Of a stretch of 64,000 nt of DNA, positions 14,577 through 22,854 are shown piece by piece. The notes beneath the pieces were generated by a model that saw only the letters and a program-made list of their open reading frames with translations, made no database searches and was not told the DNA's origin. Source of the stretch: Candidatus Hydrogenedentota bacterium (lineage in GTDB: Bacteria > Hydrogenedentota > Hydrogenedentia > Hydrogenedentales > SLHB01); NCBI GenBank assembly GCA_963745075.1, contig CAVUWV010000010.1, positions 352,001-416,000 on the forward strand, written 5' to 3'. How positions within the stretch are numbered: the stretch's first letter is position 1; each line of letters starts with the position of its first letter. Made by a program: the position numbers and the translations under genes.

Positions 14577-17500
14577 CTACGGAAACGCCATATCCACCTC
14601 CACCACCGATTCCCCCTCCGGCACAACCACGGGCTTCCCCACAACCTGCCCCAACCCATCCGTCGCTACCAGGAGCGTGTACTCGCCGGGGTCTACGGCG
14701 TCGAACCGAAATGGACCGGGACCGTTGAGCCGGTCCATGCCAGCGGCACGCATTTCCACTATCGTTGCAGAGGTCGCGTTGTTCACGGCAGCCGCATCAA
14801 CCTGGCCCGCGAGCAGGGCCACGTCCAGATCGCCAATTGTGGAGTCGGCCGTTATTCGCCCCCGCACTGACGCGCCGTCCGCAAAATCGAAGTCACGGGT
14901 GATACTGGCCCCAGGCGCGATCGCAAACATCGCCGTCTTGCCAACCCGGCGTCGACTGGCTACCTCTGTTACGACGACAAGCGTGCCCGGGCCCGCCACC
15001 ACATGGGCAAATTCGAAGTGCCCCGCCTCATCGACGGGTCGACTATATTGCACGAGCCCTTCAGCCGCTTCGACCGTCAGCGCCGCCATTATGGGACGGC
15101 TTGTTCCCAGCCCCGGCGCATTTCGTACAGTCCCTGACACCTTAGCACCGGCCGTTTCCAAATTAATATCCAGCCTCGTCGTTTGGTTAGACGCAACGGC
15201 AACGGTCCGCCGGATTCTGCCTATCGGCGAATCGACGGTCACGAGCGCGGAACCCGCGATCAGCTTGTCGACGCGGAACGATCCATCGTCTCCCGTAGTT
15301 GCGATGGGCCGTATCCGATCGTAACTCGAGAACGAAGCCTCCGTGTAGTAGAAATTGACGCGAGCCCCGGGCACAGGCGCACCATCCACAGTCACAGCGC
15401 CTTCAAGAGTTCCACCGTTCGTCAGCGTGAACGTAGGGCTCGGTGAGGATCCCGCATGTACGTCCACCGTAAATTCTCCAGGTGCGTAATCAGGGTGATA
15501 TACATAGATGAAGTTCGTCCCAGGCACGAGATTCCCCAGCGTGCAGGTGCCGTCACGGCCAGTCTTTGCGCTGGCCCCGGAAAACCGTGGGTTATCAAAG
15601 TAGTACGGTAATTCGCCGTTAAAAACCTGCGCCTCGGCTAGCGGTTGGCCGGAAGGGTCAACCACTGTCGCGTGAACCACCGCGCCCGGCTTCACGACGA
15701 GGTCCACTCCGGAGATCGTCTGCCCTGGGTGAACTTCGACGATCGTCGAACTGGGAAAGCACCCGGCCGCTCGCGCCACGACGGCGCAGCTACCCGGCCA
15801 CGCATTGTCCACGCGGTATTCACCGGATTCGTTGACGTACCGGTTGTACGGAAGGTTCGATCCCGCCGACGCCGCCACATCCGCACGAGCCACGGCCAAG
15901 TCAAACTCAGTCATGGGATTCCCCGTCCGACCATCAACCACCCGGCCTTCGACAGATCCGAAACGATCCAAAACGATCTTGAAGTCCTTCGTGCCCGTGG
16001 CAACGCCGTCAATTTGGCGGGAAGGATACCCTTCTGCCCGGATGTTGAGGTCGTAACTTTCCAGGTCGAGACCTTGCAAGGTGTACACGCCGTTTTCGTC
16101 CGATTTTGCCCAGGGACCAAGTCGCCCTGCTCCCCGCGGAATGACATCAGCACCGGAAACGGGCGAGCCCGTGTCATCGACTATCTGCCCGGTGATCGTT
16201 CCAGCGCCTCCACCCACATCGATAATCAAGTCCGAGATGGACTGTCCCGGTCCAACGGACACTTCAGTCGCCGGCTTTCCCAATCCGATTGAATCGGCCA
16301 AAATGAAATAATCGCCGGGAACCAGATTCACAAACGAGAAACGCCCGTTTGCATCGGAACTTGCCGAGTCGAAGCGGTCGCGGGTCTTGCTTCTGATATT
16401 CACACCCACTCCGGCCGCGGCCACACCGCCACCATAAACCAACTGTCCGCTGACCGAACCCATCGGGCGTTTGACGAGCGTCAATGTGACTCCCTCAACG
16501 TCATGGGCTCCTAGGGTGAAGGGTCCTGCCGTTTCGCTCATCCATGCCCCAGCCGTTGCTTGGACGATCACCGCTTCGCCTAGTGCAAGACCTGAGATTG
16601 TGAAGTCTCCGGCTTCACTTTCTTCGATATCGCGACGAGCGCCACGGAAGGCGTCGCTCGCCCGATCGGTATACCGGACTGTAACAGTTATTCGGTCAAA
16701 TTCAGCATCCGGTGGCGCTTTCACCGTCCCGCGGATTGTCGCCCCCTTCGCAAGTCCGAAATCGATTCCCGTAATGGTCTTTCCCAGTTCCACGACGAGG
16801 GGATCCTGCACGGGGTTTTCAATGACCGGGTACCCGGGCCCCTGCACGGATTGGACGTGATACATTCCCGGTCGCAAACGGGCAAATCGGTACGCGCCCG
16901 TTTCGTCTTCGTTGGTGTTTCCGTATTCCGAGACATCCCCCGTCGTACGTAGATTCACTTCTGCGTGTCGGATCCCGTTTCCAGTCTGCGCGTCATACAC
17001 CCTCCCCATGATGATTCCCCCTTGGGCAACCTCGACGGTCACACCCGTCACGTCACCGCCTTCGGGCACGATGAATCCTTTTGACAAAGAGATCAGCTTG
17101 TCATCGTGGATTTGTACAGAATTGCCACCCGGTTGGACGCCATCTAACACGAAGTATCCATCCCTTCCGGTTTCAGTCAGCCGCCCCCGATACATGCTGA
17201 CCTTCAGATCCGGCACCGGCGTGTTCGTCCCCGCATTGACCACCCGGCCTTCCACGTGCGCGCCCGGTGTCAGCGTAATCATTACCGGCGGTTTGTCGGC
17301 CGGCAGATAATCGCTTTCGTAAAGCGCACAGGTCGGCGAATCCACCTGCAACTTCCACGAACCCAGCCACACCGGCGCCAAGTGAAACCGGCCGTCGGCA
17401 TCCGTTCGCACCCCTCGGAGTTCCTGCCACCGATCGGAAAGCCACTCTTCCTCGCCCGTCCAGTTGCCTTGTGTCGGCGTTACGAGTGCATCCGACACCG

Positions 17501-18731
17501 GCGTCCCGTCCTTGCTGTGCACCACCCCGTCCAACGCGCCCGCCGGAAGCATGGCGATCTCGTGCACCTCCGGTTCTGCGGCCGTGTCGCTGCTCATATC
17601 GTCCGCGCCGAACACTCCTGGCGCCGTCGCCTGCAACATATACGCTGTATGTTGCAGATCCCTGAACCTAAACGAGCCGTCATCCCCCGATTTCGTTTCG
17701 TGGTGCTTGCCCTTCCCGGGGTCATAGGGATCGAGCGTGAGGGCCGCGTTCGCCACCGCGTTTCCGGACTGGTCGACCGTCCGCCCGCGAATGAAATTCC
17801 CGGCCAGGGAGTCCGCCGTGGCGGTTGCTCCGTGATCGGTCCGATCCGACCGATCCGTCGGATCCGTCCGATCGGCTTGCGGCTCCTCCGCAGCCACCCC
17901 GCTTTGCGCGATGGCTGTCTCGGGTCCGGCGTTCTGCGCGGTTGGTTCCGGCGCATTCGGCCAATACACCACCGTGCCCGCCACCACCAGCACCGCGGCA
18001 ACCGCCGCCATGATCTTCGCCACCACCCCGGACGCGATCGTCCCCGCAACGCCCGCCGCTGCCGCACCCCCCGCAGCGCCCGTTGTCGAAGCGGCACTCG
18101 CTTCCCACGCCGCCGTGACGCCCGCGAGCAGCCCCATGATGGTTTTCACGCGATCCCGGTGCGACCGTTCCGGTGCAACAGCCGGTTCCAGGTGACGCAG
18201 CATCTGCCCGCTCAACGCGTCCCGCGCCCGTTGCAACCGCTTCCTTACGGCGTCCTGGGAAAGTTCCAACAGCGCGGCAATCTCCTTGATTGACCGGCCG
18301 CCGTAATAATGGAGGAGCAACGCCTCGCGATGGATGTCGTCGAGCCCTTCGATCTGCTGCCGCACGAGGACGCGCAGTTCCCGATCTTCGAGTCGATCCG
18401 CAGACGGCTCCTCCATCGCGGCCACCGCATCGACCCGTTCCGCTTCACGGGCACGGCTGCGTTGGTGGTTGCGGCAGATGTTGCGAACGATGGTCAGCAG
18501 CCACGGACCGAACTTGGCGGGCTCGCGCAACCCGTCCAGGGATTCGAAGGCTTTGAGAAAGGCGTCCTGCGCGGCGTCTTCCGCATCGGTGACGTTGCGA
18601 AGCTGCGCGTACGACACCGCGTGGGCCACAGGCAAATAGCGATCGACCAGCACCGCAAATTCGTCGTGCTTCCCCGCGCGCACCCGCAGCACGACTGCCG
18701 CATCATCGGAAGTCTTTCTAAACCACGGCAT
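14577..18731 (-). CDS. ECF sigma-70 factor fused via a TM to multiple carboxypeptidase-regulatory-like beta-sandwich repeats
   Basis: DAEDAAQDAF (sigma2) and REALLLHYY..SIKEIA (sigma4), one TM, then repeated G.V.D..G.PV..A.V...TD.DG.F units. Confidence 0.87.
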   Translation of the reverse strand: MPWFRKTSDDAAVVLRVRAGKHDEFAVLVDRYLPVAHAVSYAQLRNVTDAEDAAQDAFLKAFESLDGLREPAKFGPWLLTIVRNICRNHQRSRAREAERVDAVAAMEEPSADRLEDRELRVLVRQQIEGLDDIHREALLLHYYGGRSIKEIAALLELSQDAVRKRLQRARDALSGQMLRHLEPAVAPERSHRDRVKTIMGLLAGVTAAWEASAASTTGAAGGAAAAGVAGTIASGVVAKIMAAVAAVLVVAGTVVYWPNAPEPTAQNAGPETAIAQSGVAAEEPQADRTDPTDRSDRTDHGATATADSLAGNFIRGRTVDQSGNAVANAALTLDPYDPGKGKHHETKSGDDGSFRFRDLQHTAYMLQATAPGVFGADDMSSDTAAEPEVHEIAMLPAGALDGVVHSKDGTPVSDALVTPTQGNWTGEEEWLSDRWQELRGVRTDADGRFHLAPVWLGSWKLQVDSPTCALYESDYLPADKPPVMITLTPGAHVEGRVVNAGTNTPVPDLKVSMYRGRLTETGRDGYFVLDGVQPGGNSVQIHDDKLISLSKGFIVPEGGDVTGVTVEVAQGGIIMGRVYDAQTGNGIRHAEVNLRTTGDVSEYGNTNEDETGAYRFARLRPGMYHVQSVQGPGYPVIENPVQDPLVVELGKTITGIDFGLAKGATIRGTVKAPPDAEFDRITVTVRYTDRASDAFRGARRDIEESEAGDFTISGLALGEAVIVQATAGAWMSETAGPFTLGAHDVEGVTLTLVKRPMGSVSGQLVYGGGVAAAGVGVNIRSKTRDRFDSASSDANGRFSFVNLVPGDYFILADSIGLGKPATEVSVGPGQSISDLIIDVGGGAGTITGQIVDDTGSPVSGADVIPRGAGRLGPWAKSDENGVYTLQGLDLESYDLNIRAEGYPSRQIDGVATGTKDFKIVLDRFGSVEGRVVDGRTGNPMTEFDLAVARADVAASAGSNLPYNRYVNESGEYRVDNAWPGSCAVVARAAGCFPSSTIVEVHPGQTISGVDLVVKPGAVVHATVVDPSGQPLAEAQVFNGELPYYFDNPRFSGASAKTGRDGTCTLGNLVPGTNFIYVYHPDYAPGEFTVDVHAGSSPSPTFTLTNGGTLEGAVTVDGAPVPGARVNFYYTEASFSSYDRIRPIATTGDDGSFRVDKLIAGSALVTVDSPIGRIRRTVAVASNQTTRLDINLETAGAKVSGTVRNAPGLGTSRPIMAALTVEAAEGLVQYSRPVDEAGHFEFAHVVAGPGTLVVVTEVASRRRVGKTAMFAIAPGASITRDFDFADGASVRGRITADSTIGDLDVALLAGQVDAAAVNNATSATIVEMRAAGMDRLNGPGPFRFDAVDPGEYTLLVATDGLGQVVGKPVVVPEGESVVEVDMAFP

Positions 18732-18770
18732 GATTGTACCTCGCCTCCCCTGCGAAGGCGTCACGCCGGG

Positions 18771-20492: not shown

Positions 20493-21248
20493 TCAATCCC
20501 GCGCGGCCGTCGCGCGCAATGGCAGACTGTGCACTTCCGCCGCGCCGTTGGGCAGGATGTCCCGCGGCCAGTAGCGCATCACAGCATCCGCGGCCCCCGC
20601 CTTGATCGCCACTTGCGTAATGCTCCGCGTCGTCGACAGCTCCCGGTCCATCAGCGGAGAATAGGCTTCCTCGCCCTCCGGCTGAAGCGCGTGAAACGAC
20701 GGCAGAAATCCCCGCATCGGACATCCCGCCTCGCGCCATGCGGCAAAAGCACCGCGCCGCCACATCGTCACCTCCTCCGTCTTCCACGACGACGACACCA
20801 GCATCGTCCACGTTTCCTCCGTATCCAACGCTGGCAGAAGCCCACGCCCGGTCCATGTCTGCGCGATGGTCTGTTCAAGCGAACACACGAGCAACGTGAA
20901 CGAGGGATACGGCGTCGGATCGAAGTGTCCTGAAAACGCGGCCCGAATGTCCTCTAGTCCGCCGTGCTCCAACAGCCTCGGCACGATCTCGCCACGGGTG
21001 GGTACCGGCCCATTCGCGTCTTCCGGCCGTTCCCCCTGCGGAAAGTACGCATTGACCAGACACCCCACGACTCCCGCGTCGTTTACGGCAATCCACATTC
21101 CGCCCCGATCCGAGTCGCGCGGACCCAACAAGGCGTGCGCACGACCCAACCGCTCCGGCGGAATCTCCGGACCGCGCACCCGCGCCTCATCCCGGTTCAT
21201 CGTTACCGTCAGCGCGGTATCGGTACGATGAATGCTGATCGTGCACAT
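20493..21248 (-). CDS. NRDE/TANGO2 family protein (Ntn-hydrolase-like fold, N-terminal Cys)
   Basis: MCTI...NRDE...D...GGMWI...TRGEIV...PSFTL motifs. Confidence 0.85.
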   Translation of the reverse strand: MCTISIHRTDTALTVTMNRDEARVRGPEIPPERLGRAHALLGPRDSDRGGMWIAVNDAGVVGCLVNAYFPQGERPEDANGPVPTRGEIVPRLLEHGGLEDIRAAFSGHFDPTPYPSFTLLVCSLEQTIAQTWTGRGLLPALDTEETWTMLVSSSWKTEEVTMWRRGAFAAWREAGCPMRGFLPSFHALQPEGEEAYSPLMDRELSTTRSITQVAIKAGAADAVMRYWPRDILPNGAAEVHSLPLRATAARD

Positions 21249-21501
21249 GCGATTCGCTCCCGATCGATCGCTACAACCTTTTCCAGTGTAACACTCCCTG
21301 CGTACGCACGAGCACAGAATTATTGCATTGCCCCCGCGGGGCAAACGACTCCGGTCCGGGCAAGGAAACTACGTTGCACCAATAGCTTACACCCGGCAGG
21401 GGGAGGTGCTTCGCCGTGTAATGCGGCGCCCCATTGCCGGTATTATTCACGGAAGTGAATGCCACTGCCTCTCCGAGAAAAAGACGCTGGGAGTATCCGT
21501 C

Positions 21502-21657
21502 GTGAAACGCACCAAGAACCTGACAAAACCCAAGCTGTTTATCCGCGATCTCGAGCGCCCCGCGCCCGCCAAAGGCAAAGCCACCACCCTCGCCGTCGGT
21601 GAGGAAGCGTGGTGGAAGGGTGGCGTCACGACTCTCGCCCTGGGTGAAGAGGCCTGA
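21502..21657 (+). CDS. Graspetide (plesiocin-type) precursor peptide, 51 aa
   Basis: GGGAG RBS and GTG start; MKRTKNLTKPKLFIRDLERPAPAKGKATTLAVGEEAWWKGGVTTLALGEEA with an LFIxDL leader and two TTxxxxEE cores; stop overlaps the ATP-grasp gene. Confidence 0.88.
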   Translation: MKRTKNLTKPKLFIRDLERPAPAKGKATTLAVGEEAWWKGGVTTLALGEEA

Positions 21658-22600
21658 GTCCGCGAACCACGCCCAAACGCGGCTGGGTCGCCATCTTCGG
21701 CGCAAAGAACGACCCGCAGGTGCGCCGTGTTTCCCGCGCGTTGCGCGAACGGGGCGGAAGTGTTTTCTTGTGCGACAGTGTCGCCTTTCCGGAGACTGTA
21801 CGGGTTTCCTTTGACGAAGACCGCGTCCGGGTCCATGGGAAACCGGTGCCGGAACCCATGCGTTCGGCGTACGTGCGCACGCTGGGCACCAGCTACCGCC
21901 TGCCGAATCTCGCAAAGGAATTGAAAGCCCGCCCCCACGGATTGCTGGCCCAGCTCGACGAATGCGGCGCCATGATGGCATCCATGGCCTGCACCCTCCG
22001 CGAGCGGGGCGTTCCGTTGGTCAACGACCTCGACGTCAACGCCCAACACGGGCGCAAGCCCTATCAGTTGCGCCTCCTCCGCGATGCCGGTCTCCCCGTG
22101 CCGCGCTACCTCGCCAGCAACGATCCCAAAGCGGTCCGCACCTTCGTCCGCCGCGTGAAACGCGCCGTGTACAAACCCATGGCAGGCGGCGCAACCGTCC
22201 GCGAAGTCAAGCCGGAAGACCTCTCCGACGATCGGTTGGACGCCCTGGCCTACGCCCCCGTCCTGTTCCAGGAGCTGATCGAAGGGATGTTCCGTCCGCG
22301 TCTACGTCGTCGGCGGGAAAGCTGTCGCCGCCGGCGAGTATCCACTCCACCGAACTCGACTACCGCCGCGCCGAAGACGCCGTGGTCCCCACCCGGCTCA
22401 CTACCGCCGAACGCCGCGCCGCAATTGCCGCCGCCCGCGCCTGCTCCATGCGCTTCAGCGGCGTCGACCTCATCCGCACGAAGGAGGCGTTCCTCGTCCT
22501 CGAATGCAATCCGTCCCCCATGTTTGCCGTCTTCGAAAAAAAGACCGGCGTCGACATAGCCGGCCCCCTCGCAAACTACCTCCTCAACCCTGAAAGCTGA
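21654..22600 (+). CDS. ATP-grasp ligase, graspetide synthetase (PsnB-like); two +1 indels near 22290 and 22333
   Basis: KPYQL, VYKPMAGG, LFQELIEG, VRVYVVGG (second frame), ELDYR and LECNPSPMF (third frame). Confidence 0.82.
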
Positions 22601-22604
22601 TCGC

Positions 22605-22670
22605 AATTCTTCTTCGTTCTTCGTTCTTCGTTCTTCGTTCTCGTAATCGTAATCGTAATCGTTCTCGTAA
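22605..22670. repeat. (TTCTTCG)n and (TCGTAA)n tandem repeats
   Basis: Directly visible after the ATP-grasp stop codon. Confidence 0.85.
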
Positions 22671-22854
22671 CACCCACGATGCCGGGGTCCAATTCTGACT
22701 CGTCGCATTAAACTTCACGAGCGAATTTGCTCCTCTTCAATCTGTGCAATTCGGCGTAACCTGTGGACCAAGAAGAAACACCACCGCGGGTTACCCCACA
22801 GTGGTGTTCAATCCAGCCTCAATCCCCCGAATGCGAGGGAAAACGATGTGCGCT

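Follow-up and report, generated by a model that had tools for sequence, protein, structure and literature searches.

The closest described relatives of the locus analysed here are PsnA2 and PsnB of Plesiocystis pacifica, the precursor and the ATP-grasp ligase of plesiocin (PDB 7DRM-7DRP). For this pair, activation of the ligase by the leader Phe, the role of PsnB Arg213 and inner-ring-first esterification are established in a report (bioRxiv 10.1101/2021.03.09.434688) that also describes Arg101 as specific to group 2a and largely dispensable. Residues 14-38 of PsnA2 constitute the plesiocin minimal precursor, and plesiocin inhibits elastase and chymotrypsin with nanomolar Ki (PMC10125368). A further group 2 system, RcpA/RcpB/RcpC of Rheinheimera, likewise combines TTxxxxEE-type cores with an ATP-grasp ligase; RcpA has three mixed motifs, cores that inhibit neutrophil elastase and a clustered C39 peptidase-ABC transporter (PMC11626197). 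A clustered peptidase is commonly absent from graspetide loci, and in-trans processing by unlinked genes is usual (PMC8939145). Group 2 enzymes do not modify all sites in every case: for Gra-5, a single water was lost although the prediction had been higher (PMC9576775).

How does a locus from Candidatus Hydrogenedentota compare with these systems? We analysed a stretch of 64,000 nucleotides (GenBank assembly GCA_963745075.1, contig CAVUWV010000010.1, positions 352,001 to 416,000 of the forward strand; hereafter the window), whose source genome is labelled G000, together with four congeners (G001, G002, G003 and G005). Positions 21502..21657 of the forward strand encode a 51-aa graspetide precursor with a GTG start codon, an LFIRDL leader, the cores TTLAVGEE and TTLALGEE and the linker AWWKGGV. 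A Shine-Dalgarno-like GGGAG (21489..21493, forward strand) stands 8 nt ahead of the GTG and is kept in 4/4 congeners. An earlier note on this DNA had described a 51-aa ORF with a good ribosome-binding site nested in a longer ORF; the translation matches exactly, and the precursor forms the last part, in frame, of a 109-aa ORF that begins at TTG 21328. Contigs built from four DNA read runs, which may derive from the source sample, match the assembly error-free over 21460-21623 and 21568-21718.

The pair of cores is not expected by chance. Six-frame translation of the 6.8-Mb genome yields 44 single TTxxxxEE matches, and the sole pair no more than 40 aa apart is the precursor, against about 0.006 such pairs expected. 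The precursor peptides of the four congeners are 78-94% identical to that of the window, with dN/dS values of 0.02-0.03 against G003 and G005 (at a pS of 0.62-0.66) and 0.17-0.20 against G001 and G002. Judged by these ratios, the precursor is under strong purifying selection. Across 29 orthologous precursors the TT and EE of core 1 are invariant, and the basic N-terminus, which in the window peptide amounts to a net charge of +7 across residues 1-27, is conserved as well.

The gene that follows, at 21654..22600 on the forward strand, encodes a PsnB-like ATP-grasp macrocyclase of 314 aa once two extra bases, discussed below, are discounted. Precursor and ligase are very probably a plesiocin-type (group 2) graspetide pair in a two-gene operon, as judged from their sequences. 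A profile of the 29 precursor orthologues, searched against 177,635 PDB sequences, gave a sole match, PsnA2 14-38 (E 0.003). The profile of 34 intact ligase orthologues matched PsnB over its whole length with 284.8 bits (E 6e-84); the next match scored 86 bits, RimK 79.5 (E 2e-21) and microviridin/MdnC-type enzymes 56-67. A single intact congener ligase also found PsnB, at E 2e-51. The best NCBIfam model for the ligase, TIGR04187, scored 107.6 against a cut-off of 350, and all NCBIfam models were below cut-off; with the intact congener, no RimK/LysX model matched at E<=1e-30, and TIGR04187 was the only match, below its cut-off. The plesiocin-type assignment made in the earlier note is thus borne out by the PsnA2-only precursor match, the PsnB-best ligase match and the tree position described below.

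Residue roles known for PsnB, as given in the bioRxiv report cited above, were mapped through the profile alignment with an assumed 20-residue tag offset, which puts Arg72, Arg213 and DFR in the correct places. The equivalents of Arg72, Leu196, Val201, Phe203, Arg213 and Asp233 are invariant in 34/34 intact orthologues; those of Arg192, Lys172 and Arg235 are kept in 33/34, Tyr171 in 32/34 and Arg181 in 19/34. The window ligase, read as three segments, keeps all eleven. An LFIRDL leader with the ligase-binding Phe and a D(F/W/Y)R loop, which are among the features by which group 2 is recognized, are both present. The group 2a marker is absent from the window ligase, where Asp replaces Arg101; Arg occupies this position in 3/34 orthologues, and an Arg three residues further on occurs in 21/34, none of them in this genus. 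The motifs ELDYR and ECNPSPMF that had been read from the sequence are present, but ExNPSPMF does not serve as a graspetide signature, since PsnB differs after ExN and RimK-type ligases share ExN.

Set beside PsnA2/PsnB, the window pair has the same LFIxxL leader, TTxxxxEE cores, similar leader-to-core spacing and a single ATP-grasp ligase of about 314 aa, in which leader pocket, Arg72, Arg213 and DxR loop are all shared. It differs in having two cores where PsnA2 has four, Arg in place of the first acidic residue of the leader, a Trp-Trp linker, Asp for Arg101, DYR for DFR, a probable CTG start and a host in Ca. Hydrogenedentota. Of the clustered peptidase-transporter that marks the Rheinheimera system (PMC11626197), no counterpart was found at the window locus. 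Group 2 loci of Actinomycetota, Bacillota, Acidobacteriota, Omnitrophota, Planctomycetota and archaea (L100-L150) share a PsnB-like ligase and a nearby, often two-core TTxxxGEE precursor, in some cases also with LFIRDL, but fall into separate clades, and many have acidic or Pro-rich linkers. In four of these loci (L113, L125, L126 and L148, from Pyrinomonadaceae and one archaeon), ligase and TTxxxGEE precursor are encoded on opposite strands. Other homologues, among them P0183, P0192, P0200, P0222 and P0225 (540-680 aa), are tandem double ATP-grasp proteins made of two PsnB-like halves.

The two cores, the LFIRDL leader and the Trp-Trp linker had been taken to mark a special member of the family. 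All are present, but the first two are found widely in group 2 and the third is a trait of the genus, so the claim of novelty falls. Among the best 120 of 734 precursor matches, 108 have two cores, LFIEEL is the commonest leader (51) and LFIRDL occurs 4 times; LFIRDL is also found in actinobacterial and acidobacterial group 2 precursors. A Trp-Trp linker is present at 5/23 two-core loci of the phylum, all in this genus, whereas any Trp is found at 12/23; in the same best 120 matches, Trp-Trp occurs in 10/111 linkers. Cys occurs in 14/30 precursors and in 43/111 linkers, so that some members may form additional disulfide or amide cross-links; two precursors (L021 and L026) have the first core TTAAKCEE and a linker with W-C-W.

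Within the phylum, a full-length ligase orthologue (E <= 5e-70) was found in 35/135 genomes, and 42 more have weak RimK-type matches only. The precursor occurs in 33/135 genomes, once per genome, and each of these also has the ligase (33/33). At 30/35 ligases the precursor is adjacent, with two cores in 23 cases and one core in 7; of the five remaining ligases, four have a precursor on another contig. Of these four orphan precursors, unlinked from their ligase (L294, L295, L296 and L297), two keep the promoter-like motif described below, and the L297 peptide carries a degenerate extra core. At L050 (genome G061), outside the main clade, the precursor is apparently interrupted by a stop, with a core-like segment in frame beyond it. 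Named homologues are mostly from Ca. Hydrogenedentota, in line with the earlier suggestion of a poorly studied lineage. A metagenome scan with the N-terminal fragment of the window ligase returned no match, and a second scan returned 11 loci, none of them a near-identical strain.

Neither a transporter nor a peptidase was found among the nine neighbouring genes scanned, as had been claimed. The nearest neighbours encode a TANGO2 protein (TANGO2/NRDE family, 20493-21248, reverse strand, divergent from the precursor), an alpha/beta hydrolase and a ferredoxin. They were rejected as pathway members: in 29 related loci TANGO2 recurs 0 times, the hydrolase 2 times and the ferredoxin 5 times. An all-against-all comparison of the 30 loci revealed no conserved neighbour beyond this convergent ferredoxin (5/29).

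The ligase reading frame has no ATG, GTG or TTG ahead of the first strand that is conserved; at 21654, a CTG and the precursor stop share bases in CTGA. This arrangement resembles the ATGA overlaps that are associated with translational coupling (PMC6728339). A canonical ligase start is absent at 9/30 loci: six have a CTG overlap (five in this genus, one in another), one an overlapping ATA, one a CTG just after the stop and one only an ACG. CTG is probably used as the ligase start, and this may lower ligase output. In several database entries for the ligase this first strand is missing. The ligase stop is directly followed, at 22610-22672, by short tandem repeats, a 7-nt unit repeated 4.6 times and then a 6-nt unit; the latter repeat type recurs in the genome, with 90 overlapping matches of a 13-mer.

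Upstream of the precursor, at 21418..21446 on the forward strand, lies a promoter-like motif, GTAAY-N17-GTA-NNN-T, with GTAAT at 21418-21422 and GTA at 21440-21442. GTAAY-N17/18-GTA precedes 23/29 precursors from 15 genera and 3 families, with spacers unrelated in sequence, although it was by visual inspection of these very 29 upstream sequences, which include non-independent kin and leave out the divergent L050, that the motif was recognized. Spacers from 12 to 22 were tested, and matches occurred at 17 or 18 only; shuffled upstream regions gave a mean of 0.3 and a maximum of 4 in 1000 shuffles, against the 23 observed. The motif is present at 4/8 held-out precursors and at 0/34 group 2 loci of other phyla. 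Its layout resembles that of ECF promoters, such as the GTAAC-N17-18-CGAT of ECF40 sigma-D factors (PMC12019637). A rival reading is a housekeeping -10 element plus an activator site, and TAnnnT does fit 17/23 of the motif-bearing upstream regions; consensus scans for sigma-54 and sigma-70 did not account for the motif.

Do other genes share this signal? Upstream of G000 genes, a spacer of 17 gave 10 strict matches and the other spacers 1-6 each; loose matches showed no excess. Lipoproteins were not enriched. The motif is not kept upstream of orthologues of pspA (1/31), OmpA (5/30, one an artefact) or vWA-OmpA (1/10). It precedes the glycine-zipper operon in 7/30 upstream regions, 6 of them from one genus. 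These instances (L204-L209 and L215) cover each of the 6 genomes in this genus plus a single genome outside it, and the lipoprotein operon is possibly a second target of the same regulator. Elsewhere in the window, 14577-18764 of the reverse strand encodes a protein of 1395 aa that joins an ECF-type sigma factor, with regions 2 and 4, to what is probably a membrane segment and to about nine carboxypeptidase-regulatory-like beta domains.

By analogy with PsnA2/PsnB, a route to the product can be proposed. The precursor would be translated from its own ribosome-binding site, with translation of the ligase coupled at the CTGA overlap, probably at a lower level. The Phe of LFIRDL would then dock in the hydrophobic leader pocket of the ligase and activate it, and the Arg213 equivalent would present a core Glu to ATP, so that the Glu side chain is phosphorylated. 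Attack of a Thr hydroxyl on the acyl phosphate would form the inner Thr2-Glu7 ester first and the outer Thr1-Glu8 ester second. The outcome would be two bicyclic hairpins, with esters at Thr28/29-Glu34/35 and Thr43/44-Glu49/50, and the loss of 4 H2O (72 Da) from a calculated monoisotopic precursor mass, Met included, of 5577.07 Da, with leader removal and export, if any, carried out by genes elsewhere. For the window pair, this esterification scheme is one that we infer from conserved residues.

What might such a peptide do for its producer? Both cores have Leu at position 3, which we take to be the specificity residue. Because of this Leu, the product most likely inhibits serine proteases of the chymotrypsin/elastase type, as the comparison with plesiocin suggests. 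The same plesiocin-like chemistry could serve another role, in which the modified peptide, its basic leader still attached, remains within the cell or its envelope and, under stress regulation, inhibits or binds proteins of the host itself, and is not a secreted weapon; we regard this as rather unlikely. It would fit a single-copy gene with one ligase clade across several families, 30 loci without a conserved neighbour, the conserved promoter motif, the conserved basic N-terminus and the very low dN/dS. The C39 matches also count for this role: a C39 peptidase-ABC transporter has an expected size of about 720 aa, whereas G000 (89.7% complete) has one C39 match only, a stand-alone protein of 246 aa, and among 5 other carriers C39 is absent in 2 and otherwise found in ORFs of 322-329 or 1618-3518 aa, sizes that do not fit such a transporter. 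Against an internal role, about three quarters of the phylum genomes have no match and the pair is therefore dispensable, processing in trans is usual for graspetides (PMC8939145), the regulon tests were negative or weak (pspA, OmpA, vWA-OmpA, glycine-zipper operon), and linker sequences are highly variable, as would be expected if the product were diversifying. Equally tentative, and in our judgement improbable as a whole, is the fuller version, in which the pair is an old, single-copy and largely vertically inherited part of the physiology of Ca. Hydrogenedentota, transcribed from an ECF-sigma-like GTAAY-N17/18-GTA promoter, with CTG/ATA starts throttling the ligase and the exporterless peptide acting as a stress-induced regulator of host proteases. 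In the source genome, a stand-alone C39-like peptidase gene lies beside a longer RimK-like ATP-grasp gene (L151:1444-3147, contig C8), apart from the graspetide locus; presumably this is a described peptidase plus ATP-grasp pair.

The assembly of the ligase gene needs comment. The earlier note placed an ATP-grasp gene directly next to the precursor, and the adjacency stands, but a single continuous ORF does not. Relative to 4/4 congeners, the gene is spread over three frames by two single extra bases on the forward strand, one at 22289..22290, just before the SVR motif of the Arg213 equivalent, and one at 22338..22340, just before the DYR loop. Both were placed by nucleotide alignment to the four congeners, and the first was also viewed in the light of the genome-wide indel burden. 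As assembled, the ligase is non-functional. With 335 kb of G003 as the reference, 21/181 orthologous genes of G000 have frame breaks, against 3/186 in the reverse comparison; the 22 breaks comprise 14 of +1, 5 of -1 and 3 of two bases, and among the 13/21 broken genes scanned are lepA (98% identical), rimK, hemW and thiolase orthologues. Because so many G000 genes are broken, lepA among them, in comparison with the congener, errors of assembly are the most likely source of both frameshifts, and the gene is probably intact in the organism. Contigs from the four read runs do not span 22280-22600, where the breaks lie.

A recent pseudogene, with real insertions and an unmodified peptide, would belong to the same family, and it is improbable. 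The insertions, 49 nt apart, strip the Arg213, DYR and ExN motifs from the translated product, and neither lies within a long homopolymer. But about 12% of the compared genes in this assembly are broken, including the 98%-identical lepA, and all 34 other ligase orthologues translate without a stop. The part 3' of the breaks has neither stops nor excess substitutions (73-83% identity to congeners, dN/dS 0.17-0.23, against 0.07-0.22 for intact pairs), and the branch of the window ligase in the tree is not long. Programmed frameshifting and a precursor-ligase fusion were rejected on the ground that 34/34 orthologues are intact and no slippery run was seen at the junction. Other findings of broken genes or programmed frameshifts in assembly G000 are suspect, given that about 12% of genes carry 1-2-nt frameshifts, mostly insertions.

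A FastTree phylogeny of 136 ligases with RimK as outgroup, which omits PsnB, L100-L150 ligases shorter than 220 aa and representatives after P0232 or outside 280-350 aa, groups the window ligase with those of its genus, in a clade of 38 rows (support 99) to which 34/35 phylum ligases belong. The earlier note had proposed a tree as a check that the enzyme does not group with RimK; in this tree, from which PsnB is absent, it sits among ligases having TTxxxxEE precursors. That the ATP-grasp gene is a RimK/LysX-type amino-acid ligase beside an incidental small ORF is scarcely credible: the ATP-grasp fold and nucleotide/metal motifs are shared and RimK models are the top matches of the C-terminal fragment (PF08443, E 7e-12; TIGR00768, E 1.6e-12), but those of the N-terminal fragment are RiPP maturase models, the whole-length profile favours PsnB by about 200 bits, RimK/LysX ligases have no leader-type substrate, a separate rimK exists in the genome, RimK forms a long outlying branch, and precursor-bearing genomes also have the ligase (33/33).

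For the plesiocin-type pair, chemistry and architecture are already known; what is new is the phylum-wide inheritance, the promoter motif and the non-canonical ligase start. Full-text searches found no paper joining Hydrogenedentes with graspetides; such loci may be among those already catalogued by Lee 2017/2020 and Ramesh 2021. No paper joined graspetides with ECF sigma factors and promoters, and Hydrogenedent together with microviridin was found in a catalogue paper with single mentions. In the supplements of PMC8939145 (n=11), TTxxxxEE clusters are present and the string 'Hydrogenedent' is absent.

With this pair, an uncultured phylum contributes a so far unannotated clade of small plesiocin-type peptides that have one or two cores and varied linkers. 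The pair also illustrates how such loci escape notice or are called wrongly: the precursor gene encodes just 51 aa, the ligase has no standard start codon and frameshifts arise in assembly. The 734 precursor-like matches represent a natural library of small protease-inhibitor scaffolds with a matching ligase. Of all the features described, only the conserved promoter motif could open the physiological role of graspetides to testing, and the internal-regulator reading, if true, would give a first lead, by way of regulation, to the use that producers make of graspetides.
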